A stretch of DNA of 64,000 nt from a virus, in IMG/VR virus record IMGVR_UViG_3300010049_000014, positions 2,025-66,024 of that record; one strand, written 5' to 3'. The notes below the pieces were generated by a model, which was given only the letters and a program-made list of their open reading frames with translations, was not told the DNA's origin and searched no databases. This document shows positions 4,674 to 56,972 of this stretch, one piece after another. A program made the translations under genes and the position numbers. Position 1 is the first letter of the stretch, and each line of letters opens with the position of its first letter.

Positions 4674-4678
4674 ACGCT

Positions 4679-4709
4679 ATTATAACCCCACACCCCTTGT
4701 ATTTGTCAA
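4679..4709 (-). promoter_or_regulatory. sigma70-like promoter TTGACA-N19-TATAAT, 5 nt upstream of the ATG at 4673
   Basis: Both hexamers are perfect consensus, but the spacer is unusually long. No SD before the ATG. Confidence 0.5.
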
Positions 4710-5078: not shown

Positions 5079-5081
5079 ATC

Positions 5082-6056: not shown

Positions 6057-6066
6057 ACATACCTCC

Positions 6067-10244: not shown

Positions 10245-11449
10245 TAGATTTCCTCCGGGATAAATTGAATATCTATAAGCTCTGGAATCATAAGAAGCGG
10301 TATATCGACTAACGCAACAGAGACCAGAGAACCTTCTATCATTGTTTGTATGTAAATCTTTTTTATACTTACTGTTGGTATGTTGTGGTTTTCAACGTCA
10401 CGATATAACAATGGTTCATTTATCTGATCGATATGCTGTGTCATGTATTTGTACTTTTGAAAAATCGCGCTCAATGCCGCATTACATTGTGTATCTTTTA
10501 TTTTACTTCTATCGAAGCTGTAGTTTATTGTCATATAGAACGGACGTTTTTTATGCTGCATATAGTACACAGGGTATCTGCCGCCTGCTAGAAGCGGGTG
10601 ATCGTACCAAACAACTTCTTCAGGTTTATTCATGTGCGTCTTATAGAATGTATGTGACATGACTACACTTGCGAAGCTAACATCAGGTACACCTGTTATG
10701 ATAATTAAAAGCTCTTTTGGAAGAAGCACAGTACCGTCCTCCAAGGTCATTGGAGATACATTATCAGGATTAAAGATTAAGTTGCACGCAAAAATAGATG
10801 GGATAGCACTTAACGCAAGCTCTAGTTCACGCAAGGTATCTTGCCTGTTGGTGTCAGTAAGTATTCTCTGCCGTACCTCAAAATTAGTTTCAGGCATACG
10901 ACCTAAAGACCCGGAGTTTTCAAGACTTTCAAACGCGAAAAATGTAGTTATTTTTTCTCCGTCTATGCGTACTACAGAAGCACTTACCTGCCCTGTTACG
11001 AGCCATGAGCCTATGTTTCTACTCGCAAACAAGAGTACCTGAAAGCCTAGCGCACCAATAAATAAATCGTCAGGCAATAGACATTCAAACATCTGGCCGC
11101 CGGGGGCGGAATACAGGTATGTACCGGCAGACAAAATATGCCCATCTTTGTCGTCTATGTTAGATATGACAATACGCACAATACTTGCTTTACCGGGGAT
11201 TCTTGTTTCCCCTGTAATATACATCGCGCTTTCAAGATCATCGTCATCACAGTATCGTGGATCAAATCTATATTTTAACGCAAGAACAATGTCGCGTATT
11301 TTTGAAAAGCCAGCAGCAATCGACTTCAAAACGAGAAATATTTTATTATTATCATTACGATGAATAGTGTAGGGCGTTATAGCAGCATCAAAACTATTGC
11401 ATATATCCCTTGTTTCCTCATCAATTGTTTTAGCCTCGAATACCGTCAT
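10244..11449 (-). CDS. Baseplate J-like protein
   Basis: RFDPRYCDDDDLE, GRMPETNFEVRQRIL and typical length (401 aa). Confidence 0.75.
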   Translation of the reverse strand: MTVFEAKTIDEETRDICNSFDAAITPYTIHRNDNNKIFLVLKSIAAGFSKIRDIVLALKYRFDPRYCDDDDLESAMYITGETRIPGKASIVRIVISNIDDKDGHILSAGTYLYSAPGGQMFECLLPDDLFIGALGFQVLLFASRNIGSWLVTGQVSASVVRIDGEKITTFFAFESLENSGSLGRMPETNFEVRQRILTDTNRQDTLRELELALSAIPSIFACNLIFNPDNVSPMTLEDGTVLLPKELLIIITGVPDVSFASVVMSHTFYKTHMNKPEEVVWYDHPLLAGGRYPVYYMQHKKRPFYMTINYSFDRSKIKDTQCNAALSAIFQKYKYMTQHIDQINEPLLYRDVENHNIPTVSIKKIYIQTMIEGSLVSVALVDIPLLMIPELIDIQFIPEEI

Positions 11450-11466
11450 ATTACCATCCTCCTATA

Positions 11467-11496
11467 ATAATACCACTAAAGCAGAAGAAAAATCAA
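11467..11496 (-). promoter_or_regulatory. Candidate sigma70-like promoter TTGATT-N18-TATTAT
   Basis: Intergenic, upstream of the AGGAGG SD of baseplate J. Confidence 0.35.
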
Positions 11497-11500
11497 CCGA

Positions 11501-12115
11501 TTATGCTACATTCCCAGTCCCTACGGCTCCTGCTGCGCCACCTGTTCCCATGTCTGTGACAGGAGTTCCCATAAAAAGCCCATGAATAGCGTCCGCCATT
11601 CCATCTGCCATTACCTTATCGTGGTCTCCGTCCCGTGCCATTCTACCCATGTTGAGGAACACAGCATCCAACGCTTGTGAAAGACCTACGAACACAGGAA
11701 TCATCATTCCTGTGCTGTTGCCCACAAAAGGCACTGGAGACCATCCGACCTGTGCCATCCCTGTTACGGTCTGGTTGATTGTGCCCGGCCCTGCACCCAT
11801 CAATTGTACGCCATTCTGAAGTGCTGTTGATAACAGGCTATTCCCGCCTTTACCTTTCATAGCCTCTGTCGCGGCAAACACCGGGTTTGCCATCAGCGGG
11901 GGCGTGACTGAAGGATTTCCAGTGCCAGTGCCAGAAACAATAGGCCCAATAGGAACAGCACCGCTATACGTTGTAGACACGTCGCCGCCATCCATATATG
12001 TTTTAATAGCTTCAGCAACGCCATCGGCGAAATATCGTTCATCCTTATCCCCTTTCTTCATCTCTTTAAAGCAATTGAGAAGTTCATCTGCTAAAGTACT
12101 TTTTGATAATGGCAT
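11501..12115 (-). CDS. Putative spike-tip protein (non-PAAR)
   Basis: Directly after the spike gene. Gly-rich, with repeated ADG(V/M)A(E/D)AI...GTG. Confidence 0.45.
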   Translation of the reverse strand: MPLSKSTLADELLNCFKEMKKGDKDERYFADGVAEAIKTYMDGGDVSTTYSGAVPIGPIVSGTGTGNPSVTPPLMANPVFAATEAMKGKGGNSLLSTALQNGVQLMGAGPGTINQTVTGMAQVGWSPVPFVGNSTGMMIPVFVGLSQALDAVFLNMGRMARDGDHDKVMADGMADAIHGLFMGTPVTDMGTGGAAGAVGTGNVA

Positions 12116-43555: not shown

Positions 43556-44347
43556 CTAACCATGTGCATAAAACAGATCATAAGTACCGGAGCAAAAAAC
43601 ATCAACGGACATACTATGCTGATCGGCAAATTTGCAAATACTCTGGTATTGCCTATTGCCGTATTGCTTGTACGCTGGCAATTGTGGATCGTATGATGTA
43701 GTTATTAACTGGATCATCTTAATTTCTCTGTCTGTTGCTGTTTTTAAAAACTGTTTAATTGCAAATTTTTTCTCTGCCTCCCGCTCTGCACGATAAAAAC
43801 TATTTTTACGGACGGTCTCCGCTCCTCTATGGATCATACTATAGATACGATCATTATCAATCTGTCTTGCTGTCGTTGTGTATCTTGGCGTATGATAACC
43901 ATAATAATTAACAATGTAAGTCTGCCTGTATTGCTCCGCTTGATCTGTAGTTGTACTAATTGGTAACGCATAATTATTGATAGTCTCAATCCGCTCCGCC
44001 TCTATTGCTACATCTGATCTCTGGTTGCGGTCTCTGCGATTAGCCGGATCAATAATTGCATCTTGTGCATCAATGCCGTATTTGCTCGTATGCCTACCAG
44101 TGCGATACTGTCTCTTATGCTCGGCAAATACCCTCTTGGTTGCACATAACAGATCAATCTGTTTGTCGTCCGCTAATATCATCGCTGTTGCGATTATATG
44201 ACTACTTATTTGATCTCCCATCTTGGGTAATAGATCAAAATAGGCATTTACCGCCGTCTTGTCACTGGCATTGTCAATAATTTGATCTTTTGCCTTGATA
44301 ATGCCATTTTCATAATCTTTTTTTGCTTGTCTTTCTGTTTTTTTCAT
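43556..44347 (-). CDS. Hypothetical protein, possible divergent sigma-factor-like regulator
   Basis: 263 aa, AGGGG SD. IKQFLKTATDREIKMIQL resembles sigma region 4.1. The function call is weak. Confidence 0.6.
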   Translation of the reverse strand: MKKTERQAKKDYENGIIKAKDQIIDNASDKTAVNAYFDLLPKMGDQISSHIIATAMILADDKQIDLLCATKRVFAEHKRQYRTGRHTSKYGIDAQDAIIDPANRRDRNQRSDVAIEAERIETINNYALPISTTTDQAEQYRQTYIVNYYGYHTPRYTTTARQIDNDRIYSMIHRGAETVRKNSFYRAEREAEKKFAIKQFLKTATDREIKMIQLITTSYDPQLPAYKQYGNRQYQSICKFADQHSMSVDVFCSGTYDLFYAHG

Positions 44348-44378
44348 TTTTTATCCCCTATTATAATAATATAATATA

Positions 44379-44406
44379 ATATTAGCATTTTTTGAAAAAT
44401 AGTCAA
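44379..44406 (-). promoter_or_regulatory. Candidate promoter TTGACT-N16-TAATAT with extended -10 TG for 43556-44347
   Basis: The -35 lies in the outer end of the left inverted-repeat arm. Confidence 0.45.
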
Positions 44407-44834
44407 GTAGTTATTTTTTATTTTTACGTTTTTTTTGGCTATTATCTACTATATATTAGCGGTTTGTAGGGCAGAAAAAAAGCCGGTTTTTACCGTATTA
44501 TAATAATATCCGTCTATATATAGATCAATAGTTTTTGATTTTAGAATTAAAAAGATAAATAGTAAGTGACTGATATTTTGGTATCATTGGTATTTTTTAG
44601 AAAAATACCAAAAAATCTTATCATATTATTATAATAGATTATTATAATAATATATGTATTGTATCATACCAAATAAACAAATAATTTTTAAAACTAAAAA
44701 CTATTGATCTATATATAGACGGATATTATTATAATACCGGCAAAATGCCCGTTTTTTTGCCCGTACAAATTACTTATATATAGTAGATAATAGCCAAAAA
44801 AACCGCAAAAACAAAAAATAACTACTTGACTATT
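44398..44834. repeat. ~150-bp imperfect inverted repeat with ~140-bp AT-rich spacer
   Basis: Perfect blocks of 22 bp (44398-44419/44813-44834), 27 bp (44430-44456/44776-44802) and 42 bp (44495-44536/44696-44737). Confidence 0.95.
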
Positions 44835-44903
44835 AGTGCAAAATGTACAAAAAAATAGGCATATAACCGTTAAGATTATATGCCTATTATAAAAATTGTA
44901 TTA

Positions 44904-45218
44904 CTATTTATTGTCTTTTTTGGAGCCGATAACGATAAATTGTAGGTTGCTGGTACACCGTATACCGCCAATATCCACTTTGGGACTGGCAAAATAGCCG
45001 ATACTGCCCGTGGCAAATTCACGGCTGTTAAGGATTATTTTGTATTGGCTTTCTGTTTCGGGATCGATTATCGGTGCGTTATCTTGGTCTACAAGTAATA
45101 GTTTGATCTTGCTAATTGGTAGCCTAGCAAGCCTATCAATGCTTGTATTCTGCGCTTGCGCTGTTGCGCTTGCATTGTCAATTTTTTCTACTTTTTTACT
45201 CATCTTTTTAATCTCCAT
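44904..45218 (-). CDS. Hypothetical early protein
   Basis: C-terminal REFATGSIGYFA...VIGSK. The start may be 45203 (GGAG SD). Confidence 0.65.
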   Translation of the reverse strand: MEIKKMSKKVEKIDNASATAQAQNTSIDRLARLPISKIKLLLVDQDNAPIIDPETESQYKIILNSREFATGSIGYFASPKVDIGGIRCTSNLQFIVIGSKKDNK

Positions 45219-45281
45219 TATAAGTGATTTTTTTTATCGGTATAATTGCCGATTCAATCCTGCCTGAGTATAATTTGTCAA

Positions 45282-45374
45282 TTAACAATTGGCAAAATAC
45301 TCGATGATAGCGTCTAACTCTTCTTGCGACAATGTGTCTTTGATTGCTGCATCTACCATTTTTTCGATGTCCAT
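45282..45374 (-). CDS. 30-aa acidic peptide MDIEKMVDAAIKDTLSQEELDAIIEYFANC
   Basis: AAGGAG SD and its own GATCTA-N14-TTTGCC motif. Not in the ORF track. Confidence 0.55.
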   Translation of the reverse strand: MDIEKMVDAAIKDTLSQEELDAIIEYFANC

Positions 45375-45401
45375 TTTTTCTCCTTTATTTGTTTATTTAT
45401 T

Positions 45402-45427
45402 GGCAAATAGATTGCATTTTTTAGATC
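45402..45427 (-). promoter_or_regulatory. Bipartite motif GATCTA-N14-TTTGCC, copy 1
   Basis: Ends 27 nt upstream of the ATG at 45374. Confidence 0.7.
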
Positions 45428-45432
45428 ACATT

Positions 45433-45654
45433 TCAAATATTTTTTAATATTTGGATCATGTGATATTTGCCGATAATTAGTATAGATACTAATGATCTGT
45501 AGTATCTATATAATACTTTTTTTTCCGCCTTGATCTCTTGGATACTTGCGTTATTACGTTTTTTCCAGCGTATTAACTGTTGTATCAGTTTAATCATTGT
45601 CTTATAGTGCATAATACGATTTCTAATCAGTATGCGCATTGATTTTTTATCCAT
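45433..45654 (-). CDS. Small basic hypothetical protein (73 aa)
   Basis: ATG at 45654 with AAGGAG SD. Confidence 0.6.
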   Translation of the reverse strand: MDKKSMRILIRNRIMHYKTMIKLIQQLIRWKKRNNASIQEIKAEKKVLYRYYRSLVSILIIGKYHMIQILKNI

Positions 45655-45680
45655 TTTTTCTCCTTTATTGTTTTTGTATT

Positions 45681-45706
45681 GGCAAATAGATCGCATTTTT
45701 TAGATC
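45681..45706 (-). promoter_or_regulatory. Bipartite motif GATCTA-N14-TTTGCC, copy 2
   Basis: Ends 26 nt upstream of the ATG at 45654. Back-to-back with copy 3. Confidence 0.7.
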
Positions 45707-45736
45707 ACATTTTTTAATATTTTTATTTTTTGCTAT

Positions 45737-45762
45737 GATCTATTTTGCGTGCTTTTTTTGCC
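45737..45762 (+). promoter_or_regulatory. Bipartite motif GATCTA-N14-TTTGCC, copy 3
   Basis: Faces the first plus-strand gene at the strand switch. Confidence 0.65.
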
Positions 45763-45809
45763 TTGTTTTTAGATTTTTAAAACTACTACACAAGCGTATA
45801 GGGGGATAT

Positions 45810-45986
45810 ATGAATAATAAAATAATAATTGCCGACATATTACGCGACACAATAACGCAATATTATAATGGGAATTATACGCAATGGCATAATATACTAG
45901 CAATAGATAAGCTACGTATTATGCAAATAGTAAACAAGCGCATACGGGATTTGCGAGATAAAACAAACAATAGGGGGAAAAAATGA
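45810..45986 (+). CDS. Hypothetical protein
   Basis: GGGGG SD before the ATG at 45810. Coupled to the next gene. Confidence 0.6.
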   Translation: MNNKIIIADILRDTITQYYNGNYTQWHNILAIDKLRIMQIVNKRIRDLRDKTNNRGKK

Positions 45987-46270
45987 CAAGTAATAAACCT
46001 ACAGTATTGTATATGGCAAGCCTAGAGGGTAATCCTGTACATAACCAGAAAGTATATAGCACGTCTTCAGGGCTATATCTGGTATCTTATGATGTATTTG
46101 TGGCGTACAAGCCGCATACGGGCTCTGTGGGGGCTTGTAGGGGCATTAAATGGGACTATAGCAAGACAACAGCGCGTTATGTCCGCCTGTTTCTACACGG
46201 CTATAGTGTGGACACATTGCCAATAAATGACATACAGGCAATGTATGAACATGATGTTAAAGGGGGTTGA
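45983..46270 (+). CDS. Hypothetical protein
   Basis: Coupled ORF. Contains WDYSKTTARYVRLFL. Confidence 0.7.
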   Translation: MTSNKPTVLYMASLEGNPVHNQKVYSTSSGLYLVSYDVFVAYKPHTGSVGACRGIKWDYSKTTARYVRLFLHGYSVDTLPINDIQAMYEHDVKGG

Positions 46271-46271
46271 T

Positions 46272-46490
46272 ATGTATATATTGGACATTGCATCGGATGG
46301 CGTGATAACGCTTGTATTTCGCAGTTACGCATGGGCAAAAGAAGTAGTACTCTCCCCCATGCAGTCTGCTGTATTACGTGCTAAACTGTCTATGGCTGGT
46401 AAGTATATATCGGGCGATAGGAAGGATGTGATCACTATCGCAGGACAAACAACACTGGGGGCGATATGCAGGTCGTTCCTCATATACTAA
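46272..46490 (+). CDS. Hypothetical protein
   Basis: AGGGGG SD before the ATG at 46272. Confidence 0.55.
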   Translation: MYILDIASDGVITLVFRSYAWAKEVVLSPMQSAVLRAKLSMAGKYISGDRKDVITIAGQTTLGAICRSFLIY

Positions 46491-46536
46491 AAGCAGGTCT
46501 GTAGTGACAGGCTTATTAAACAAGGGAGCGTATTTT

Positions 46537-47307
46537 ATGTTTGAAAACAGGGTCTTACGACAAAGGACTGTCGATGTGACAGTACAGGATTATCTTAACA
46601 AGGATAATTTATTCCATGCGCAGTTTACAACCAAGGCAGGAAACCCAGCACTTGTACAGGTGATGCAGGACAATGACACAGGGTACTATGACAGTCCGCG
46701 TGAATGGGATAATTTGTGGACATGGGTAACGTCTGACAGAGCAGGATACTCTGATATTGATTTCCGAGGCACAAAGGAAAACAATTTTCGTGACAGGACA
46801 CACCACAATGTCGATGACTATGTGGGTGAAACAAGAAGGCTTTCAAAAGATTTCTTGAAACACAATGTAGTAGTTAAGCTCTACCTGTACCGGCACTCTG
46901 GGGATTACATCTATTCTGCCCGCTCTGTAAATCTTCCCTGCAATGTGACTTGTAAATGGGATTCAGGGTGTATGGGATTCGCTTTTGTATCAAAGGAAAA
47001 AATCAGGAAGGAATATGGTACACATAAATGGGAAGACGGCAAGGACATTGGCGTGCCGTTAAAGCGCATATCGAAGCAGGTCATGGAAGAAGCGTACGCC
47101 TGCCTTGAAGGTGAGATACAAACAATGAATATGCTTAACGCTGGGGAGGTTTACTGGTTTAAGGTTGTGGACATGATGACCGATGAAGAAGATTCATGTG
47201 GTGGAAATTACGCAGGCAGCAGAAAGGAAATTGCGCAGCAGGTAGCAGACTTCTTGCATGGTTGGTGTGACAACCCAAGTGATGTCGCACAGGAGATGGT
47301 AGCATGA
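46537..47307 (+). CDS. Hypothetical early protein
   Basis: GGGAG SD. Contains SPREWDNL, WDSGCMGF, GEVYWF...DSCGGNY. Confidence 0.75.
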   Translation: MFENRVLRQRTVDVTVQDYLNKDNLFHAQFTTKAGNPALVQVMQDNDTGYYDSPREWDNLWTWVTSDRAGYSDIDFRGTKENNFRDRTHHNVDDYVGETRRLSKDFLKHNVVVKLYLYRHSGDYIYSARSVNLPCNVTCKWDSGCMGFAFVSKEKIRKEYGTHKWEDGKDIGVPLKRISKQVMEEAYACLEGEIQTMNMLNAGEVYWFKVVDMMTDEEDSCGGNYAGSRKEIAQQVADFLHGWCDNPSDVAQEMVA

Positions 47308-47489
47308 AAAAGAGGATGTGGGCGTTATGGTCAACGCAACTAGACGGAAAGCGGGACGTTATTGCGTTGTACGACACTGTCGAGTATAGCTACGATGATG
47401 TGAAGTATATTGCTGCCGAAAGGCAGGGTGCTGTAGGGGAGGAACATGACTTCTCCCACAACATAAACTTGAGGGAGGTAGAGTTCTAA
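47304..47489 (+). CDS. Hypothetical protein
   Basis: Coupled ORF. Confidence 0.55.
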   Translation: MKKRMWALWSTQLDGKRDVIALYDTVEYSYDDVKYIAAERQGAVGEEHDFSHNINLREVEF

Positions 47490-47812
47490 TGGCATTAAAG
47501 CAAACAATTCAATTTACCGTTATATCAGAAAACGGTATAGCACTGGAGATGGAAGACATCCAGAGCAGGCTGCTTGACCATCAGCAGGTCTCATGGGTGG
47601 ATTTTGAGGTTGTGAAAGAGGAGGAAACGAAGTATACTGATGAAGATAAGGTCTTTGAAAGACAGGACTTCGTTGATAACACAATAATGGACATGGCACG
47701 TGCCTTAGTGCCGGATGCAAAGCATCAAATGCACTTCATAGCAGAGGTGCGAGAGGCACTTATTCGAGAGTTTAATCTCGATGAGAATGAGTTTTATCCG
47801 TCGTTGACGTGA
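47489..47812 (+). CDS. Acidic hypothetical protein
   Basis: Coupled ORF, followed by a hairpin. Confidence 0.65.
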   Translation: MALKQTIQFTVISENGIALEMEDIQSRLLDHQQVSWVDFEVVKEEETKYTDEDKVFERQDFVDNTIMDMARALVPDAKHQMHFIAEVREALIREFNLDENEFYPSLT

Positions 47813-47814
47813 TG

Positions 47815-47852
47815 AAATACCCTACTTACCACTGTGTAGGGAACTATTTAAG
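47815..47852 (+). terminator. Candidate terminator hairpin
   Basis: AAATA-CCCTAC...GTAGGG-AAC-TATTT right after the stop codon. Confidence 0.45.
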
Positions 47853-47902
47853 TTTTAAATAGTATTTATTGAATGATTAAAACTAATTGTTATTGATACT
47901 CT

Positions 47903-48051
47903 AGTCCTGTAGCGTCGTTGACGAGCAGGATTTGAGGCTGTGATTCGTGTTCCATGTCTCGGACACACTTATAACCAACAGTGGATTCGCAAGTGATGCC
48001 TGATGTAGTCCCCGCAATATGGGTAGAGGATCAACTTCACTTGCGTTTTTC
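47903..48051 (+). ncRNA. Candidate structured small RNA (no family recognised)
   Basis: Three successive hairpins. The last has a 9-bp stem CGCAAGTGA/TCACTTGCG followed by TTTTT. Confidence 0.35.
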
Positions 48052-48069
48052 TAAAGGCAGAAGAAAACC

Positions 48070-48176
48070 AACGGCTATTTACTGCCGCGCTATTTATTGC
48101 CGACAGCACAGTATATACCTAGCAGTATGCTGTGCCTCCCAACGGCTATTTACTACCGCGGCTATTTATTGCCGAC
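48070..48176. repeat. Duplicated ~35-bp unit AACGGCTATTTACT(G/A)CCGC(G)GCTATTTATTGCCGAC flanking a hairpin
   Basis: Copies at 48070-48104 and 48141-48176. GCACAGTATA...TATGCTGTGC stem lies between them. Confidence 0.85.
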
Positions 48177-48233
48177 GGCTTTTCTTCTGCCTTTAAAAAT
48201 ATTTAATAAAAATAAACTTGTTTATTGCCGAGT

Positions 48234-48259
48234 GATCTAAAAATCAAAAGTTCTTTGCC
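48234..48259 (+). promoter_or_regulatory. Bipartite motif GATCTA-N14-TTTGCC, copy 4
   Basis: 28 nt upstream of the ATG at 48288, with AAGGAGG SD. Confidence 0.7.
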
Positions 48260-48287
48260 AAGTAATAAATAAAAAAGGAGGGCTATA

Positions 48288-48509
48288 ATGCCTAACGAAC
48301 GACTATTTACCGCCAATTTGCAGGTAACGGTTATGTATGATCCGTGTAAAATACAACAGTCGCTAATTGTGGATTTAGTACAGCACAATTTGGAAAACGT
48401 ATTTGATTCTTCCTGTCCAGAAGTAATAATCCGACAGGAAAGTAGACAATGCTTGTCATGTATCAACAGGGAAGAACAGCCGCCGTTGACAGTAATAAGG
48501 AATAAATAA
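48288..48509 (+). CDS. Hypothetical protein
   Basis: Strong SD and promoter-like motif. Confidence 0.55.
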   Translation: MPNERLFTANLQVTVMYDPCKIQQSLIVDLVQHNLENVFDSSCPEVIIRQESRQCLSCINREEQPPLTVIRNK

Positions 48510-48742
48510 TGGGAGTACGATGGTCAACAACTCACAGGGGTGTGAAGATACACAGGGTGTACTATCAAGGATGTATAAACTACAAAGTAGATGGTACACA
48601 AGAGCTTGCTTGTAGTTTATATCAAGCAAAGAAATGGATCGATGCGCGTATACTAGAGTGTTTTGATAACAAAACACTACCTGTTTCACATCATGTGAAA
48701 TCAGGGCTACGCCAGTCGTTAATATCTATCGGCAATAAATAG
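48509..48742 (+). CDS. Hypothetical protein
   Basis: Coupled (TAATG) to the previous ORF. Confidence 0.5.
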   Translation: MGVRWSTTHRGVKIHRVYYQGCINYKVDGTQELACSLYQAKKWIDARILECFDNKTLPVSHHVKSGLRQSLISIGNK

Positions 48743-48767
48743 CCGTTTGACGAATAGGGGGATAATT

Positions 48768-49682
48768 ATGAAGTACAATGCACGTTTTGAAATGGGATCA
48801 AGGTTGTTTCATCTTGCACAACCAGACATTTATTATGAGTTTGCAGGTCTTGTAAACTCACTTGAGGAAGGTGAAACAGAATATTATATGGACACAAAAA
48901 AAGAACACGAACCTTCAGGGCAATACTTTGTGCATGGGCACATGGTGCGTGATGTAATCGCTAAAGCATGGGTACAGGCGTTCGCATGGAAACTATCAAC
49001 TAATGAGCTTACAAAGGACATAAAGGTAGTATATGAGGATGCTGGGTCTCCGAAGGAGTACAACTACGGAGGTGATTGGGCAAACTTCTACCTTCTTATC
49101 TCACAGAAAAACTATAAAGCACTTATTGAGAGTGTAATTGAAGAAGGTATAGACGACTGGCTATACAACAATTACAAGTCTTACGATGGCTTCTGGTCTT
49201 ATATGCCGGACAACCTTGATGAGTATATGGAGCAAGCCGAATGTGATAAATGGCGTGTCAGTAAGGAAAGGAATGGTTATGCTTTGGCACAGGCGATACA
49301 GTATACGCTGTTTAGAACAGACCTTGAAATTGGTGCGTGGAATGATAGTCTGCACTATGATGTGGAAGAAATTGAGTTTTCGCATGATACTTTCTACTTT
49401 GAACCAGAGGAAGTGCAGTACGGTGTGACGTGCATGGACTGTGGAAAACAAGCTCCTGATGCGCAGGATTGCGCAGCGAAGTTTAACGGCTGGTTTAGGG
49501 ACATGGGGGAAAATAAGTACTGCTGCGCTCGATGTGCCTATGTGCGTGACAGGCGTGCGGAAGAAGAACAGAAGAAAAAAGAAAATAAAAATCTTGCAAA
49601 GATGCGATCTAAAATCGTAAAGTTCTTTGCCAATTCAATAACAAAACTTAGGAGGAAATATGAAGAAGCAATATACCGTTAG
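48768..49682 (+). CDS. Acidic hypothetical early protein with C-terminal Cys cluster
   Basis: AGGGGG SD. Contains SPKEYNYGGD, KSYDGFWSY, CxxC. Confidence 0.75.
   Translation: MKYNARFEMGSRLFHLAQPDIYYEFAGLVNSLEEGETEYYMDTKKEHEPSGQYFVHGHMVRDVIAKAWVQAFAWKLSTNELTKDIKVVYEDAGSPKEYNYGGDWANFYLLISQKNYKALIESVIEEGIDDWLYNNYKSYDGFWSYMPDNLDEYMEQAECDKWRVSKERNGYALAQAIQYTLFRTDLEIGAWNDSLHYDVEEIEFSHDTFYFEPEEVQYGVTCMDCGKQAPDAQDCAAKFNGWFRDMGENKYCCARCAYVRDRRAEEEQKKKENKNLAKMRSKIVKFFANSITKLRRKYEEAIYR
49606..49631 (+). promoter_or_regulatory. Bipartite motif GATCTA-N14-TTTGCC, copy 5
   Basis: Inside the 3' end of the upstream gene. 28 nt before the ATG at 49660 with AGGAGG SD. Confidence 0.7.
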
Positions 49683-50463
49683 TCTTGCGTTTGTGGACTG
49701 GGAAACAATGATCATAGAAGCAGACAGTCCTGAAGAAGCTCTTGCTATCGCAAGAGAGAGTGAATTAGAAGGTACATGGGATGCGCCGAGTACCTGTAGA
49801 GAACGCATGGAAGAAGATGATACTGTCTACGGTGTTGGCGGCACAGAAACAAGTACCAAAGTTATGACATACATACGCAGAAAAAGAGAAAGCATCGAGC
49901 GTAGTATCGTGCCCAATTTTGACAACACAAGGCAGATTGCTATTATTTGGGACATAGATGATGTACGGCACGAAAGACCGTACCTGACAAAAGCGCAGGC
50001 GATGGAAGTTCTTGAGAATGTACATCGTAAACATGATGCTACATTAGGTGTATCATGGGAAACACTACAGATTCATTCAGATATGATGTTCTCATTCGAC
50101 CCGCCATGCGCAGAAGAATCGTTCTTAGACTGCCAGCACAAAGTGATGCACAAGGACTGGGAATGTAATCCACTGAAGTGTCCATCAAGAGGTGCGCCGC
50201 GTCTTGTGTTCTACGCATACGATGTGTGGGGAAACAGGGAAGATGGCTGGGAAGTAAATGACAGGCAGCAAGTAGGTGCAGCGACAATTTATGCTTTCAC
50301 AGACGGCAATGAAGACGACAAAATACTTGAGAGTGTGCGTAAATTGTATGGCTTTGATGTCAAGGAAATTGAGATTTTCGAGAACAGTGACGAACACGTC
50401 ATCATGTTTCAAAACAAAGAAACCAAAAAGCCGTTAGGTGAATATGTGGTGGAGGAAGTATGA
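49660..50463 (+). CDS. Mosaic hypothetical protein (several small phage domains)
   Basis: Segments IIEADSPEEAL, IIWDIDDV...HDATLGVSW, YDVWGNREDGWEVND. Confidence 0.75.
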   Translation: MKKQYTVSLAFVDWETMIIEADSPEEALAIARESELEGTWDAPSTCRERMEEDDTVYGVGGTETSTKVMTYIRRKRESIERSIVPNFDNTRQIAIIWDIDDVRHERPYLTKAQAMEVLENVHRKHDATLGVSWETLQIHSDMMFSFDPPCAEESFLDCQHKVMHKDWECNPLKCPSRGAPRLVFYAYDVWGNREDGWEVNDRQQVGAATIYAFTDGNEDDKILESVRKLYGFDVKEIEIFENSDEHVIMFQNKETKKPLGEYVVEEV

Positions 50464-50642
50464 TTTATGTAGATAATAAACAGGACAAGATGTGGGATGC
50501 ACTCATGGAATGTGATACTGAAATGGTAATGATGGCGTTTACAAACTATCACGGTATGCAGCTTTTAAACGATGGATTCTATAAGTTCCTCATAGAAGAA
50601 GGAATCATGGAAGGCGATGGTGAGGAGGAAGACAATGAATGA
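50460..50642 (+). CDS. Small acidic hypothetical protein
   Basis: Coupled ORF with GGAGG SD. Confidence 0.6.
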   Translation: MIYVDNKQDKMWDALMECDTEMVMMAFTNYHGMQLLNDGFYKFLIEEGIMEGDGEEEDNE

Positions 50643-51081
50643 GCTAATCATACCAGAAAGCCTTGCGTCTATTACTATTCCCAAGTGGCGTGACACAGCA
50701 AAGCTCCTTGAAGGATTCAAAGTCATCGCCTTTAACCCCAACCACACTCCGGCAGGGGATTGGGATTACTCTCCCGCAAGGGAAATCATTGATGTGCGCA
50801 CATTTGTTCTGGGAGGTAAACGCAGCGAAGGTAGTAACGGAGTGCTAGTGTGGATTCATAGTCCCACGCATCACGGACACGCGCATGGCAGGGCTGGAGG
50901 TTGTGGATACCACAGACCTTCGGCTGCTTTTTCTTCTGCCTTACTCGCAATGGGTATCACGTTAGGTGAACATGAGTGTCATGGCAGAGGAGATTCTGCG
51001 ATGTACGACACAGCCCTTGCGATAGCTCAAAAGTTGGGGTATGAACAAAAGTATTTGCATATTGCAAAGTTCTTTAGGTAA
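50635..51081 (+). CDS. Hypothetical early protein
   Basis: GRAGGCGYHRPSAA...LAIAQKLG pattern, which I recall from phage early proteins. Confidence 0.7.
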   Translation: MNELIIPESLASITIPKWRDTAKLLEGFKVIAFNPNHTPAGDWDYSPAREIIDVRTFVLGGKRSEGSNGVLVWIHSPTHHGHAHGRAGGCGYHRPSAAFSSALLAMGITLGEHECHGRGDSAMYDTALAIAQKLGYEQKYLHIAKFFR

Positions 51082-51111
51082 ATCGGCAATAAATAGCCAA
51101 GGAGAAAAATT

Positions 51112-51651
51112 ATGGTGTTTATAAATTATGATGGTATCGGTTTTGATGATTACCATGTTGATGATGATGACGGGCATATTTGGTCACAAGTATGTGAAAA
51201 ACACGCAAAATGTATGCAGATTGATCAGCCAATGATTTCTCACGTAGCGTGCAAGGATTTAATATGTGGTGTGGCAGGCTGTGAAGAAATCGCAGAGTAT
51301 TACATCGACTTTCCTGTAATATGGTGCGGCGAGTGTGGGGCAGAAATAAACTTCGAGGAATGGGCAGAAAACGGAAAGCCTGCGTGTGGTTACATCACCT
51401 GCCAAAAGCCGTTGTGTCCTTCGTGCGATAACAAAATGCACGAAAGAATGGACAATGGTGAGCTTCCGATATGCAGCGAGTGTGCGGAAGAAAACAAGAA
51501 AGATCGTATCATTGGGGATGAGTGTGACACTTGCCAAAAGATAGATGATTGTAACACAACAGAAAAGGGTGTAGGGTCTCTATATCACGGCGATGCTGAT
51601 GGTAGATGTAGAAACTACCTATGCAGCAATGTTCCGCGTAAGGAGGGATGA
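51112..51651 (+). CDS. Cys-rich multi-zinc-finger protein
   Basis: AAGGAG SD and many CxxC motifs. Confidence 0.7.
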   Translation: MVFINYDGIGFDDYHVDDDDGHIWSQVCEKHAKCMQIDQPMISHVACKDLICGVAGCEEIAEYYIDFPVIWCGECGAEINFEEWAENGKPACGYITCQKPLCPSCDNKMHERMDNGELPICSECAEENKKDRIIGDECDTCQKIDDCNTTEKGVGSLYHGDADGRCRNYLCSNVPRKEG

Positions 51652-51654
51652 GGG

Positions 51655-52044
51655 ATGGGCGATAAACACATAGATATGATGCAGTGTGCGCCACGGCATC
51701 TGCGGATATACAGAACAAAACGAAAACCTATGCCTGTTGATGATACCTGTGCTGTGTTCACTAAGGCAAATTGTTTTGGTGGAGAGCGATATAGAGGAAA
51801 GGTGTATTTTGTTTCGTGTAACGACAGACCATACACTTCTTTCTATCAGCATGGAGAAGCAGACCGCTGGCAGTTCTCTCCAATGGGCAGCAGAATTAAA
51901 TGGGCGGATATATCAACGCAGTTGCGCAGGTGCTTAATGAATGAGTACGAGGACTTATGGCAAATAAGGTTTTCTCACGACAGCGAATACTTTATATCAA
52001 GTTGGCGACCAATGACACAGGAGGAGATAAATGAGATCAAATAA
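51655..52044 (+). CDS. Hypothetical protein
   Basis: GAGGG SD. In the operon. Confidence 0.55.
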   Translation: MGDKHIDMMQCAPRHLRIYRTKRKPMPVDDTCAVFTKANCFGGERYRGKVYFVSCNDRPYTSFYQHGEADRWQFSPMGSRIKWADISTQLRRCLMNEYEDLWQIRFSHDSEYFISSWRPMTQEEINEIK

Positions 52045-52231
52045 CGAAAAACCACAAGAGTGCAGGTATACACACCAGCACTGTCAGCACGCAAGTATCA
52101 TGGGTGATTGTCTTGCTAATCCTGAAAAATGCAAGGATAAAATAGAGATGGACAAAGCGTTCGCCGCGAAAATCAAAACGGTATCTGTATCGGCAGCAGC
52201 AATGCCAACAAGAAAGGGGAGAATAAAATGA
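52031..52231 (+). CDS. Small Cys-containing hypothetical protein
   Basis: GGAG SD. Coupled. Confidence 0.55.
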   Translation: MRSNNEKPQECRYTHQHCQHASIMGDCLANPEKCKDKIEMDKAFAAKIKTVSVSAAAMPTRKGRIK

Positions 52232-52536
52232 AAAAGTTATGGGAGGGAATACGACCGTATGTAGTTGTCGCTTTATTTACGCTATTTGGTTTTGGTGCTG
52301 CGTACACACTGGTATCTGTTGGTAGGGTTATTGAGGAAAAGGCACACACCTGCGAAGTTCCAGTAATAGAAACACCCGGAGTATACATAATAGATGTAGA
52401 GCAGATGACATTTGGTCGTACTAACCACGACAATAAATGGATGGTACATTATGCCTATCAAGGTGTGCCGCATACAGCGTTTTTGCCGTGTAATGACAGT
52501 TTAGCCGAGTTCCTTGCGTACTTGGCATTATTTTAA
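52228..52536 (+). CDS. Hypothetical protein with N-terminal TM
   Basis: Hydrophobic aa 10-31. Coupled. Confidence 0.6.
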   Translation: MKKLWEGIRPYVVVALFTLFGFGAAYTLVSVGRVIEEKAHTCEVPVIETPGVYIIDVEQMTFGRTNHDNKWMVHYAYQGVPHTAFLPCNDSLAEFLAYLALF

Positions 52537-52548
52537 TAAGGAGTAATT

Positions 52549-52779
52549 ATGATAGTCGTAAAACCAGTAGATATGGAAGTTATTTACAATGGGAAGGTGT
52601 TAGACGCAGGTTGTGTAGAATTATCGTTTAATTCTGTTGATGTTCACCCTTCGCAAGCGTTTGCTTATGGATTATATAATTGCATAGATGGTGTGGATGA
52701 CTGGGTTGCTGATTTCGCAAATGCGCAGGTGGCGCAACGTGTTGCAGACCTTCTAAACACACATGGGGGTGCAAGATGA
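52549..52779 (+). CDS. Hypothetical protein
   Basis: AAGGAG SD. Confidence 0.6.
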   Translation: MIVVKPVDMEVIYNGKVLDAGCVELSFNSVDVHPSQAFAYGLYNCIDGVDDWVADFANAQVAQRVADLLNTHGGAR

Positions 52780-53681
52780 AAGGAAGTACAGTAGTAGTTA
52801 CCAAGAAGGAAAACAGAACCTTATTTAATCTAATGACATTTTTATGCGTCATATCAAAAACATTAAATAAGGTGACAAAAGAAAGGCGTTACGCGAAAGC
52901 AATACGATTTATAAAAGGAATCACAAATCCTGACGTAATGTTCGCCTATGCTACTGATGGACAAAGACTGCACTGCGTTCCGTTCTTTTCTGCTAAGTTG
53001 CAAAAAGAATTACGGAGGGAACTTGAGTGGAGTATAGTCAGTGCTACAAAGGATGTTATTACACTTACCGAGTACACAGGGGATGGAGAGAAGTTTCCTG
53101 TTGATGGTGTGCGTGATGTGTTACCTGAAGATATTGCTTTATGCGAGCAGATACCTGATAACAACAAAGAGTATTGGCGGTTGTCGCACAAAATGTCTGG
53201 TGTGTGGATAACCGAAAACGCGGTTGGGGATATTTTATTTTATCTTGCGCGTAACAATGTAGCGGTGGACATTACGTATCTACAGGCATTGCACGTTGCG
53301 GAAGGAATAAATGAGTTTCATGTTTGGCAGAAGGATAAAACAAAAGATTTAAATATTCCCAAAGGAATAGAAGATGTTATCGCGTACATAGCTAACAAGC
53401 TAGACGCTGTGTTTGAGGGTACGTTGGTTTTTAAGGTGTCGCACCCACACAGCGCTTGCGGAGGTTTGGCGGCATCTGCTATTGCTTTAATACAACCAAG
53501 GGTACAGACTAACCGGATGTCGTATGTAGAGCTAACTAATGAAATGGTATCGGAGAAAGGACTTTCCATACTCGCAAATCGTTTTGCAAAAACAAAGAAA
53601 ATAACAGTGGAAGATGCGACAGAGGCACTACGGTATAGTAATAATTTTAATGTAAGAAGGTCAAGATGCAAGGAAACATAA
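52776..53681 (+). CDS. Hypothetical protein with a sliding-clamp (DnaN) domain-like segment
   Basis: YATDGQRL and GEKFPVDGVRDVLP resemble DnaN ATDGHRL / GxFPDYxRVIP. Confidence 0.55.
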   Translation: MKGSTVVVTKKENRTLFNLMTFLCVISKTLNKVTKERRYAKAIRFIKGITNPDVMFAYATDGQRLHCVPFFSAKLQKELRRELEWSIVSATKDVITLTEYTGDGEKFPVDGVRDVLPEDIALCEQIPDNNKEYWRLSHKMSGVWITENAVGDILFYLARNNVAVDITYLQALHVAEGINEFHVWQKDKTKDLNIPKGIEDVIAYIANKLDAVFEGTLVFKVSHPHSACGGLAASAIALIQPRVQTNRMSYVELTNEMVSEKGLSILANRFAKTKKITVEDATEALRYSNNFNVRRSRCKET

Positions 53682-54586
53682 TAAGACATGAAGACTATCT
53701 TAGCCCTACAGCGGCTATATTTTTGATGACACAGCACAACATGGTGTTGCGTGACTACAATGCGTTTGAGGAAGATGATGTTACTTTGGTGTGGTGGTCT
53801 TCAAGATGCCATGTTTTTCATTATTGGAGTAACGGCACATTAAAAGGTATCTGGAATAACGGATTCATAAACAAACGTGCGTATTTTCCAATGCCTAAAA
53901 GTCCGCACATTTTACGAGATATATTATTTACTAAAGATTTTGAAAAATCCGAAGCAGGGGAGTACAGGAGTAACACTGCGATATGTGAAATCATGGAATT
54001 GACTGCACAAAGTCACTTTGAGTGTGAGGACATTTTCCATGTTGGAAACCACCTTGTCCACGTAAGTGAGAGACCTGACCTTATGAATTGCCACAATACA
54101 CCAATAAAGAGTACACTACAAGAGGAGGCACAAGCCTCTCTTGCAGAAGAAACAGCAAAAACAACAACTAAAGAGCAATGCTGGAATTGTAGAACTGTAG
54201 GTTTAACGTGTATTCCTTTTATTACTCCTATGGGGAACAGTATTTATGTGTGTCTACGGTGCCATGAGGCTCTTACGGAGCTTATAACAACAAAAGAAGA
54301 ACAAGGCAGAAAGTATGACAGTGAAAAACTGCGGTGGTACTTGTTGCCGTGGGATGCGCTTGAGGAAGTAGTCAGGGTGCTAACGTATGGAGCGCAAAAG
54401 TACGCACCCAACAACTGGAAGAAGGTCGAACCATTTTATGACAGGTATTCCGCGGCACTAATGAGGCACTTTAAAGCAGATCAGGTAGGAGAGATTTGCG
54501 ATGAGGAAAGCGGCCTACACCACATGGCACAAGTAGCCTGCAATGCGCTTTTTCTACTTTGGTTTTCACTACAGGAGGAAAGATAG
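53666..54586 (+). CDS. Fusion protein with C-terminal DUF5664 dATP/dGTP diphosphohydrolase domain
   Basis: GRKYDSEKLRWYLLP...YGAQKYAPNNW...ESGLHHMAQVACNALFL. Confidence 0.85.
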   Translation: MQGNIIRHEDYLSPTAAIFLMTQHNMVLRDYNAFEEDDVTLVWWSSRCHVFHYWSNGTLKGIWNNGFINKRAYFPMPKSPHILRDILFTKDFEKSEAGEYRSNTAICEIMELTAQSHFECEDIFHVGNHLVHVSERPDLMNCHNTPIKSTLQEEAQASLAEETAKTTTKEQCWNCRTVGLTCIPFITPMGNSIYVCLRCHEALTELITTKEEQGRKYDSEKLRWYLLPWDALEEVVRVLTYGAQKYAPNNWKKVEPFYDRYSAALMRHFKADQVGEICDEESGLHHMAQVACNALFLLWFSLQEER

Positions 54587-54724
54587 ATGTTATACACATA
54601 TATATGCGTAGTTCTTACTGTTGTTGTGTCTTTTATTTTGCTGTACGTACTGTGTGTGCCTGGGTTAATGCTTATGCAGAAGTGGAGCGAGTTTTGTGAA
54701 AAGCACATTAAGAAGGAGCTATAA
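54587..54724 (+). CDS. 45-aa single-TM protein
   Basis: GGAGG SD. Fills the gap exactly. Not in the ORF track. Confidence 0.55.
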   Translation: MLYTYICVVLTVVVSFILLYVLCVPGLMLMQKWSEFCEKHIKKEL

Positions 54725-54936
54725 TGCCGCAGACAAGAATATTGGTTGAGATAGTGTGTGATTTTGTCCATGCAATATCGGTAATACCGCTGGATGAAAA
54801 CTGCCCAAAGTGCGCGTGCCGCATAGATGGGCATTGTATAAGGGCAAGACAGAATGTAGATACAGTACATTGCGACTATGGGCGCAAGGGCTACTATAGC
54901 CTTCAGGCAAAGGGTATGCGAGAAGTAACAGCATGA
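54724..54936 (+). CDS. Cys-rich hypothetical protein
   Basis: Coupled, with AAGGAG SD. Confidence 0.55.
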   Translation: MPQTRILVEIVCDFVHAISVIPLDENCPKCACRIDGHCIRARQNVDTVHCDYGRKGYYSLQAKGMREVTA

Positions 54937-55238
54937 CAAGTAAAGGAGGCTTGGTGGAAGATTTATTGGAAGGCGATGTAGGAATATGTCTTGGGCTATA
55001 TGAAGAATACCCTGTACTCAAACCGTTGTTTGAGCGGGGTGTTTGTCAAATAAGAGAAGTAGGCATGGTTGCATCGCGTGCGTGCCTTTTAACTAATAAG
55101 TATTTAGCTACGGAAGGATGCAAGCCTCTGTTCTTACAGGATGCTACGATGTATACTGTAAGAATGACCCGCTGGCATGAGAATCTGTTCGGAGCTATGG
55201 GCGAAATCGCAGAATACGAAAAAAGAAAAAATAATTAA
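54933..55238 (+). CDS. Hypothetical protein
   Basis: Coupled ORF. Confidence 0.55.
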   Translation: MTSKGGLVEDLLEGDVGICLGLYEEYPVLKPLFERGVCQIREVGMVASRACLLTNKYLATEGCKPLFLQDATMYTVRMTRWHENLFGAMGEIAEYEKRKNN

Positions 55239-55245
55239 AAATCTC

Positions 55246-55274
55246 TTGACAAGTTATACAAAACATAGTAATCT
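55246..55274 (+). promoter_or_regulatory. sigma70-like promoter TTGACA-N17-TAATCT
   Basis: Canonical spacing, upstream of the AAGGAG SD and the ATG at 55300. Confidence 0.65.
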
Positions 55275-55299
55275 CAAATCTAGCGAAGAAGGAGCAATA

Positions 55300-55863
55300 A
55301 TGAAAGAAAAATTAGTATTGGCGAAAGGGGTTACTTTTGAGAGTGAACCCCACAAATACTACATCAACGGAAAAGAACTCTCCGGCATAACAAAACTAAT
55401 CGCAAAACGAATGAATATACGGATGCCGGAGGAGTTTGCCGGGGAGGCACGCAATGAAGGACTACACATCCATAGTGCTGTTGAGCAGTGGCTCGATGGT
55501 AGTGAGTTTCCTTCTATCCATCCGGGTGCGGTGTGGATAAAAGGTATCCTTGAAAGACAGTGGCATAAGCCACAAGAGCAATGCCATAGTGAAGTGTTGG
55601 TGTCGGATTTAAAGCAATTTGCATCGAGTGTGGATATAGTTGGCGTATATCCTGATGGCACAGTGGTTTTATACGATATAAAAAGGTCATTTAAGCGGGT
55701 TTATGTGAGTTGGCAGTTGTCTATATACCAATACTTTATCGAAAAATACACAAAATACCGTGTGGCAGGGCTTAATTGCTTGTCTGTTAAAGATAGAACA
55801 ATGTTTCCTATCTTCGCGCACTCAAAACATGACGTGGAAGAACTGCTGTATGGGTCGAAGTGA
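55300..55863 (+). CDS. PD-(D/E)XK (Cas4/RecB-like) exonuclease
   Basis: GLHIHSAVE, SEVLV, ASSVDIV, YDIK, WQLSIY. Confidence 0.8.
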   Translation: MKEKLVLAKGVTFESEPHKYYINGKELSGITKLIAKRMNIRMPEEFAGEARNEGLHIHSAVEQWLDGSEFPSIHPGAVWIKGILERQWHKPQEQCHSEVLVSDLKQFASSVDIVGVYPDGTVVLYDIKRSFKRVYVSWQLSIYQYFIEKYTKYRVAGLNCLSVKDRTMFPIFAHSKHDVEELLYGSK

Positions 55864-56317
55864 AAAGCAAAAGGCAGAAGATGCCATTAGAATAGATGTA
55901 GTCAGGCAACTAGTACGTGCCGGATTTTTGAATGATTACATCGCAAGACTTCTTGGCATTAAAGTTTCTTGTCTGCGCGTATTTCTGTATCGTCATAAGG
56001 TGCCGAGCAATCCGGGATTGGGCGGTAAACGTAATCATGCGAGGTATAAAGGCGGAAGGATTGTACGGAAGGATGGGTATGTCTATCTATCTGGTATGCA
56101 ACATCACCCAAGACACTATAAAGGGGAAGTGCTAGAACATAGGGTTGTTATGGAAACAAAACTCGGTCGTTTCCTGACAGCAGAGGAAGTAGTACATCAT
56201 ATTGACTATAATAAACAAAATAACGATATAAACAACCTGATGCTGTTTAAATCACAGAAGGCGCATTTTTTTTATGAAAAAAATATTTGTGTGCATCCGA
56301 ATAATCCGAGAAACTGA
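55850..56317 (+). CDS. HNH endonuclease
   Basis: EHRVVMETKLGR...VVHHIDYNKQNNDINNL. Confidence 0.9.
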   Translation: MGRSEKQKAEDAIRIDVVRQLVRAGFLNDYIARLLGIKVSCLRVFLYRHKVPSNPGLGGKRNHARYKGGRIVRKDGYVYLSGMQHHPRHYKGEVLEHRVVMETKLGRFLTAEEVVHHIDYNKQNNDINNLMLFKSQKAHFFYEKNICVHPNNPRN

Positions 56318-56341
56318 TCTAAAATAAGATTTTATTTTGCC
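56316..56341 (+). promoter_or_regulatory. Bipartite motif GATCTA-N14-TTTGCC, copy 6
   Basis: 19 nt before the ATG at 56361 with AGGAGG SD. Confidence 0.65.
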
Positions 56342-56360
56342 TAAAGGCAAAGGAGGAAAA

Positions 56361-56972
56361 ATGCAACTAGGACAGCATGATAAATTACAACTTATGTACG
56401 CATTATTTGGTGCGCACATGATGCCAAAGCTGAAAGAACAATGGGAGGTGGTGCGTAAAGAAATAACATCTATTGTGGCTGCATACTGGCAAGACTTTGA
56501 CTTTGACGGCGCACAGAAGTTTGAGAGATACATCAACTTTCACACCTATGTGCGCATACACGGTGGCCCGGTACTATTTTGGGATCACCCTTTAGTTAAG
56601 TATTTCGGACTAGAGGCAGGTGCTAAGGTAGTATTGGTTGATTTCAAATTTCCGTGGACAGATGGTAGCACTGTATATATAAGCGAATTAGGAGATGATA
56701 TTAGCAGTAAAGCGATTAAAATAATAAAAACGTATACATCATCGTTTGATAAAATTGCGGCGTTGTGGGACACAACAAAAGAAGCACTTGCATCTATTCG
56801 TACAACAGGGCAGCTAGAGGAACGACTACCAGAGCTTGCGAATTATTTACCGCCATCAGTGACAAAACAAACTACCGCTGTGCTACCTGTAGAGACATAT
56901 AAAAAAGTGCGCATGATGTTTTCTTCTGCTAGTACAGAAAAGAAGGTGGATAATGTCGCAGAAAAGAAGTGA
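56361..56972 (+). CDS. Nmad5-like (nucleotide-modification-associated) protein
   Basis: C-terminal LASIRTTGQLEERLPELANYLP...LPV. Confidence 0.6.
   Translation: MQLGQHDKLQLMYALFGAHMMPKLKEQWEVVRKEITSIVAAYWQDFDFDGAQKFERYINFHTYVRIHGGPVLFWDHPLVKYFGLEAGAKVVLVDFKFPWTDGSTVYISELGDDISSKAIKIIKTYTSSFDKIAALWDTTKEALASIRTTGQLEERLPELANYLPPSVTKQTTAVLPVETYKKVRMMFSSASTEKKVDNVAEKK

Follow-up and report, generated by a model that had tools for sequence, protein, structure and literature searches.

Promoters that are private to a phage and read by a phage sigma factor are already well known. In Bacillus phage SPO1, the middle-gene sigma factor gp28 is made from an early gene with a host sigma-A promoter, and its bipartite promoters lie before replication-type genes. 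Podophage 7-11 has eight gp47 promoters of the form GTAAtg-N16-aCTA, and the element of phiEco32 gp36 is tAATGTAtA (PMC8948821). These are related phages with diverged sigma factors and different promoters, and transcription starts 6-9 bp past the element (PMC8948821). The middle promoters of T4 carry a MotA box at -30 and also depend on AsiA, an arrangement known as sigma appropriation (PMC6755090, PMC2988021). Here we describe a motif that adds one more to this set, GATCTA-N14-TTTGCC, in a stretch of DNA from an uncultured termite-gut phage, 64,000 nucleotides (nt) long and called the window below. The window covers bases 2025-66024 of the 69,507-bp IMG/VR record IMGVR_UViG_3300010049_000014, which is linear and about 80% complete by CheckV. 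We consider it rather likely that the six copies of this motif are promoters of early or middle genes, read by host RNA polymerase that a phage-encoded factor redirects. The genes served are probably small host-takeover-type genes and genes of nucleotide metabolism and replication. The leading candidate for the redirecting factor is a 263-aa protein encoded nearby.

The original prediction had reported six exact copies of the motif, and all six are present, as follows:

45402-45427, minus strand: site 1, GATCTA-N14-TTTGCC, heading a 30-aa open reading frame (ORF) at 45374-45282 and a 99-aa ORF at 45203-44904.
45681-45706, minus strand: site 2, heading a 73-aa ORF at 45654-45433.
45737-45762, plus strand: site 3, the first rightward site, heading 45811-45986 (58 aa) and small genes up to about 47812.
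48234-48259, plus strand: site 4, heading 48288-48509, 48509-48742 and the next ORF.
49606-49631, plus strand: site 5, heading 49660-50463 and a long run of genes up to an HNH gene, including 53666-54586.
56316-56341, plus strand: site 6, heading 56361-56972 (weak Nmad5 match), a DUF1351 gene, an AEP primase and a UvrD-type helicase.

This number is far above chance: across 100 shuffles that preserved dinucleotides the motif came up 0.01 times on average, and in none of them six times. No further exact copy turned up in the whole 69,507-bp record, and allowing up to two mismatches added 9 matches against 5.5 expected, which is chance level. All six copies are confined to the early/replication arm. 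Each is directed at the next gene, as had been claimed, and the distance from TTTGCC to the ATG is 27, 26, 48, 28, 28 and 19 nt for sites 1 to 6. The reported spacing of 19-28 nt together with a Shine-Dalgarno (SD) sequence holds for five of them, with AAGGAG or AGGAGG at five of the six sites; site 3 stands 48 nt from its ATG and has GGGGG as its SD. Sites 2 and 3 form the expected back-to-back pair at the strand switch, 30 bp apart. GATC is fixed in the upstream element of every copy, and CTAAA-N15-GCC is found at all sites except site 3, whose upstream block is the most deviant of the six (GATCTATTT). Aligning the sites revealed a conserved block wider than first described, tGATCTAaaa, about 10 variable nt and then T-TTGCC-aa, and A/T-rich DNA precedes it at all six. 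Site 5 lies in the final 77 nt of an unannotated ORF (48747-49682), and the HNH endonuclease gene (55760-56317) ends within site 6, its stop codon being shared with the site. The six sites divide the early arm into six plausible transcription units, and the operons that they head have no other promoter candidate. What we find, then, is several rigid copies, co-oriented with phage genes and far above chance, as in a phage sigma-like promoter class.

Outside the window phage, an exact search with GATCTAAAA-N11-TTTGCCAA returned 14 matches in viral_contigs and at least 119 in genome_contigs, all of them single, scattered and at chance level, so the exact motif is not shared. The architecture is. 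Portal homologues of the window phage are 36-63% identical to its own; early arms were reached in two contigs, L180 (an NCBI metagenome contig, portal 55%) and L181 (an ENA contig, portal 57%), and ten IMG/VR relatives (G001-G010) were taken whole. We looked for motifs with an unbiased count of 5-mer/gap/5-mer pairs, in which the window motif was the top family in its own genome; the L181 array was recognized by inspection of upstream regions. Four relatives carry arrays of the same architecture in their early arms, with 4-9 sites each:

L180: tttttgCACTT-N11-ATTGCGAATAaaaa (CACTT-N11-ATTGCG), 9 copies.
G001: ttTATCCGGTTT-N11-TTGCCTATa (TATCCGGTTT-N11-TTGCC), 6-8 copies.
G008: tAGTAGCAaa-N-ctcATTGCCTaAT (TAGCA-N12-ATTGC; upstream block AGTAGCAAA), 7-9 copies.
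L181: aTGTGTTTTT-N10/11-TTAT(T/C)G(C/T)CTAT (upstream block TGTGTTTTT), 4 copies.

Where tested, 0.01-0.02 copies were expected by chance. The sites again point at genes and have A/T-rich DNA ahead of the upstream block, and back-to-back pairs at the strand switch occur in L180 as well. In every genome with an array, the upstream block sits at about -23 to -13 relative to the T of TTGCC. Across these genomes, the family has the downstream block (c/t)ATTGC(C/G) in common, and each phage has an upstream block of its own. The parallel arrays, with the in silico results given below, back the original reading of the motif as a promoter. The more distant relatives G003, G004, G005, G006, G007 and G009 showed no such motif.

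The comparison also bears on which factor reads the sites. The sigma-28 promoter consensus is TAAA-N15-GCCGATAA, in which the CGA core is weighty; the -10 element is 8 nt long, and transcription starts about 7 nt beyond it. Like promoters of the sigma-28 group (FliA/SigD/WhiG), five of the six window sites have CTAAA at a 15-nt spacing from GCC, reading CTAAA-N15-GCC(A/T)A. In addition, the downstream block across the related phages, GCCnATAA, is one base off GCCGATAA, FliA/WhiG is encoded by termite-gut treponemes, and no recognizable sigma gene was found in the record. The original prediction had accordingly offered the host flagellar sigma factor as a reader, which would link early expression to motile hosts. 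We regard this as improbable. The prediction had itself noted that the -10 part deviates from the FliA consensus, and the CGA core is indeed missing from all six sites, which have GCCAA, GCCTA or GCCTT instead (-10 readings GCCAATAA, GCCAATAC, GCCAAGTA, GCCAATTC, GCCTAAAG and GCCTTGTT). In the relatives' arrays, CACTT, TCCGG, TAGCA or TGTGT replaces TAAA at the same position while the downstream block is kept; the TAAA is thus a trait of the window phage. With sigma-28 geometry, site 6 and several sites of the relatives would also have their starts within the SD, and the 263-aa candidate has no likeness to a FliA profile. A count of the sigma-28 pattern in a termite Treponema metagenome-assembled genome (MAG) gave 3 matches versus 7 for a control pattern and is uninformative. 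Judged by these sequences, the resemblance is an accident of the window phage's upstream block, and a tempting misreading of the sites as flagellar sigma-28 promoters is corrected.

Gating by GATC methylation, also suggested at first, may still occur in the window phage but finds no backing. Upstream blocks in the relatives lack GATC, and the record yielded no Dam-type methylase: a search with PF02086 gave a sub-threshold match only, within the ORF of the primase, and one with PF01555 had no match. Across the genome, GATC is scarcer than expected (108 sites versus 259). We did observe a GATC island at 43576-45740, where 24 sites fall within 2.2 kb; the 263-aa ORF contains 13 of them, and most of the 24 stand outside a GATCTA context. 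The island is a feature separate from the motif.

The position of the SD suggests where transcription would begin. At site 6 and at several sites of G001 and G008, the SD begins 8-9 nt past TTGCC (9 nt past TTTGCC at site 6). If the SD is to be part of the mRNA, the start must fall within this gap, which would put TTGCC in the -10 region and the private block at about -34 to -24. We considered other promoter types. A Bacteroidota-type promoter (TAnnTTTG at -7) does not fit, as no site has TA four bases ahead of TTTG and the SDs are strong. A sigma-54 promoter (GG-N10-GC) is rejected because GG is not at the needed distance, and TTGCCA as a -35 hexamer would leave 19-28 nt to the ATG, which is too short. 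A search of the record for a T7-type RNA polymerase (PF00940) gave no match, a weak negative since the control search matched no genome either.

The sites might instead be operators to which a phage DNA-binding protein attaches, replication- or partition-type boxes, or RNA-level signals by ribosome-binding sites. Many of the G001 and G008 sites, as well as site 6, have a palindrome, TTGCC-N4/5-GGCAA, which could bind a dimer or fold in RNA, and the GATC island and a large inverted repeat adjoin sites 1-3. We find this explanation very hard to credit. The palindrome is missing from sites 1-5 and from every L180 site, the layout has no symmetry and keeps its spacing while the spacer sequence varies, and all sites are co-oriented with the next gene. 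At the back-to-back pair on the strand switch there is no upstream transcript to act on, and the operons at the six sites would be left without a promoter candidate. As an observation in its own right, the palindrome at 56336-56355 (TTTGCC-TAAA-GGCAAA) occurs among the window sites only at site 6. Many of the sites in G001 and G008 have a similar sequence, TTGCCTATAAGGCAA, a likeness that hints at past recombination with a relative, or else at a second role of the site.

If the sites are promoters read by a redirected host polymerase, a factor must do the redirecting, and the original prediction had pointed to the product of 43556-44347 as a possible sigma-like one. The features that concern this gene are as follows:

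43556-44347, minus strand: 263-aa ORF, member of a small, fast-evolving family; candidate sigma-like specificity factor.
44379-44406, minus strand: host-type promoter of the 263-aa gene, TTGACT-N16-TAATAT with TGc in front (extended -10).
44854-44888, minus strand: terminator-like element, a 15-bp stem followed by a T run, which ends the site 1 unit ahead of the inverted-repeat region.

The 263-aa ORF is an orphan by word-indexed search, with no Pfam or PHROG match. BLAST among the relatives' early arms did reveal homologues: the window protein is 26% identical to one in L180 (E 1e-10), which occupies the same gene position, and the L180 protein is 25% identical to one in L181 (E 5e-12). A profile search of 1.8 billion representatives brought in no more than three other true members. 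In six-frame searches the family was detected in G001, G008 and G002 and, in part, in G010, but not in G003, G004, G006, G007 and G009. The family is therefore represented in all five motif-bearing phages (the window phage, L180, L181, G001 and G008), and it is missing from five complete or near-complete relatives (92-100%, CheckV) in which no motif was found. In all six genomes that have the family, the family gene, or the small operon that contains it, is preceded by a host-type promoter, TTGnnn-N15-18-TAnnnT, which is TGn-extended in five:

Window phage: TTGACT-N16-TGcTAATAT.
L180: TTGCGT-N17-TGcTACAAT.
L181: TTGCAA-N17-TATACT.
G001: TTGACA-N18-TAGGGT, with TGa in front.
G008: TTGACA-N15-TGcTACTAT.
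G002: TTGTTA-N17-TGcTATATT.

Of the early-arm genes, this one alone should consequently be within reach of unmodified host polymerase. A putative cognate factor that co-occurs with the motif and would be expressed without it is what these genomes present, with G002 as the exception.

We then examined the structure that the protein may adopt. The AlphaFold2 (AF2) model of the window protein was poor, with a predicted local distance difference test (pLDDT) score of 61; Foldseek against the PDB returned nothing for it, and look-ups in the ESM Atlas gave nothing usable. The G008 homologue was modeled better (pLDDT 72), with helical domains at 4-81 and 148-215 and a weak linker between them, and its model likewise had no significant Foldseek match in the PDB. 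In VIA-align, the nearest structure to the N-terminal domain was a designed protein, followed by the sigma-like domain of PhyR (Z 6.2, root-mean-square deviation 3.2 Å, 65 residues aligned) and, further down, by ECF SigH (Z 5.1), a sigma domain 2 on -10 DNA (5.0), HrdB (4.8) and RpoE (4.3). The C-terminal domain was nearest to LuxR-type and homeodomain helix-turn-helix folds (Z 4.3-4.8). All of these Z values are under the noise bar that the tool states for helical folds. Among AFDB clusters, the top match and 7 of the 30 best belonged to the sigma-70 family; these proteins are 190-260 aa long and align with the model over its full length, at a best E of 0.2. The fold matches are weak but enriched for sigma factors, which is suggestive only.

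Complexes were predicted as well. The N-terminal domain of the G008 homologue with E. coli beta' 235-345 gave an interface score (ipSAE) of 0.71-0.73 in three runs, versus 0.00 for the best of three in the docking controls. Of 80 solved complexes, 58 attain the ipSAE mark applied, as do 2 of 110 mismatched pairs. At least 66% of contacts were common to the runs, and the pLDDT of the partners was at least 74. On the beta' side the predicted interface is 270-295, which are the clamp helices that sigma region 2 binds. The helix predicted to make the contact is the best-conserved segment of the 263-aa family; it spans residues 20-34 of the G008 homologue and about 46-61 of the window protein. The predicted docking thus supports binding of the N-terminal domain to the beta' clamp helices. 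The score may also mirror a resemblance to sigma-core complexes of solved structure, and whether there is such a resemblance is the very question.

Taken together, the proposed mechanism would run as follows. Unmodified host holoenzyme would transcribe the 263-aa gene (43556-44347) from TTGACT-N16-TGcTAATAT. The N-terminal helical domain of the protein would then take the place of sigma region 2 on the beta' clamp helices, and its helix-turn-helix-like C-terminal domain would read the private upstream block tGATCTAAAA at about -34 to -24. The family-conserved (T/A)TTGCC would occupy the -10 region, and transcription would start about 6-8 nt past TTTGCC, just before the SD. In this manner the 263-aa protein may switch on the six units. 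The firing of the sites, the positions of the starts and the role of the 263-aa protein as the reader are the parts that we infer.

Several points weigh against this interpretation. Pfam gave no signal for nine members of the 263-aa family, a sequence profile search of the PDB had no match, and hhalign of the family against a termite-Treponema FliA profile returned a probability of 0.25%. No fold match is individually significant. The protein used for docking was the G008 homologue, which is 15% identical to the window protein, and its partner was E. coli beta', which may not be that of the host. Co-occurrence of family and motif could merely reflect relatedness, and G002 has the family with no matching motif by k-mer or bipartite searches. 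Among the public runs listed as holding the window's DNA, the number of RNA runs is zero. Finally, with the record about 80% complete, the missing part could encode another factor. Of the original proposal of a phage sigma-like factor from 43556-44347, then, the co-occurrence, the host-type promoter and the predicted docking speak for it, and the sequence profiles do not.

The same evidence can be read in terms of T4. The sites would still be promoters, and the 263-aa protein would be an activator or sigma-appropriating partner of the MotA/AsiA kind that works with the host primary sigma, or else the reader would be a different phage factor, possibly in the missing 20% or so of the record. Like T4 middle promoters, the window sites have a phage-specific element near -30, where the MotA box sits, in place of a -35 hexamer, to be read by an early phage protein. 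The stretch after TTGCC is A/T-rich and loosely -10-like (TATAAG, TAATAG, AATAAA), and sigma domains are not detectable by sequence in the record or in the family; a six-frame search of the record with Sigma70_r2 and Sigma70_r4 (PF04542, PF04545) had no match. However, T4 keeps the -10 element of host sigma-70 (TAnnnT), whereas the -10 region of the window sites is (A/T)TTGCC. The stretch after TTGCC has no conserved T at -7, and if it served as a -10 hexamer, starts would fall inside the SD. The predicted contact is to the beta' clamp helices, the sigma2 site, and not to sigma region 4 or the flap. We therefore think this arrangement unlikely, though less so than reading by sigma-28.

Redirection of host polymerase by a phage factor remains the reading that we prefer, and it can be set beside the other known systems. 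As in 7-11 and phiEco32, a few rigid, phage-private copies head operons, and host core polymerase would work with a phage factor, here by prediction. The sigma factors of those phages are recognizable by sequence and serve middle and late genes, whereas the window candidate has no detectable sigma domains and would serve the early/replication arm; its own gene has a host-type promoter. Among the window phage and its relatives only the upstream block varies and the -10 block is kept, which is also different from 7-11 and phiEco32. The switch from a host-read early gene to replication-class genes is like that of SPO1 gp28, but gp28 is a recognizable sigma-70 member and the promoter sequences are unrelated.

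We put forward more tentatively, and with some doubt, that the 263-aa family is an unrecognized minimal sigma-type factor with no detectable sigma-70 similarity, which docks on the clamp helices and combines a drifting upstream specificity with a fixed ATTGCC -10 element. If so, nature would already have supplied, in this family, a set of orthogonal sigma/promoter pairs. Sequence profiles do not detect the likely reader; should it be a true initiation factor, the few highly divergent sigmas known from phages, among them T4 gp55 and phiEco32 gp36, would be joined by a cryptic family, and genomes reported as sigma-less could still hide a sigma gene. Five sister phages with one -10 block and distinct -35-type blocks offer material for the study of promoter-specificity co-evolution and for orthogonal expression pairs.

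The window has a GC content of 42%, and nearly all of its genes have a strong AGGAG-type SD. Near-identical DNA is present in termite-gut metagenome runs from four studies, two of which runs may be the source sample. Distant portal relatives are found on short MAG contigs labelled Clostridiales, Lachnospiraceae and Treponema. A blastn search of GenBank phages with the region gave no match, a single-protein search of IMG/VR with the terminase found no relative, and no tRNA or Rfam family was found in the window. The early genes and those for nucleotide metabolism and replication run rightward from about 45,800 and include a dATP/dGTP diphosphohydrolase-like domain, an HNH endonuclease, DUF1351, an AEP primase, a UvrD-type helicase and a weak match to a PD-(D/E)XK nuclease. 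The gene at 53666-54586 matches PF18909 (dATP/dGTP diphosphohydrolase N-domain) strongly, with E 2e-32; together with the weak Nmad5 match at 56361-56972, it suggests a DNA-base-modification module under sites 5 and 6. In L180, the PD-(D/E)XK and DUF1351 neighbours have no HNH gene or Nmad5-like gene between them, which makes the pair in the window look like an inserted cassette.

The relatives hold other repeated elements. L180 has a 1.6-kb region with no called gene (10250-11870) that contains tandem 11-bp boxes of the GTGGATAA type along with four promoter-type sites, of which two stand back to back; the region may be an origin or a non-coding RNA region. The complete genome G002 (L185) has its early arm filled by long tandem arrays of 21-, 9- and 15-bp units (700-1310, 1720-2250 and 4560-4830). 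G003, G004, G005 and G006, which have no promoter motif, carry clusters of an iteron-like TAACT-N9-TAGTT palindrome (e.g., L196 2198-2530). G010 (L200-L201) carries TATTGACT-N13-TGGTA six times, at 6218, 22880, 24169, 29077, 34078 and 35230; this is a rigid promoter of the host type with an extended -10.

On the other arm, the structural genes run leftward from about 43,100 and include a terminase, a portal, DUF2213 and a CHAP protein with an intein. The placement of the intein differs in L055, the closest long relative, where the terminase large-subunit position (4304-8557) holds a 1417-aa ORF with intein-type domains. The late genes have apparent host-type promoters of their own, at 37404-37374 and at 43152-43124, just before a 214-aa gene. 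The latter, on the minus strand, reads TTGTAA-N17-TATGAT with TGc in front. It ends 6 nt before the ATG (43117) of the 214-aa gene, so the first gene of the late strand may be leaderless or nearly so.

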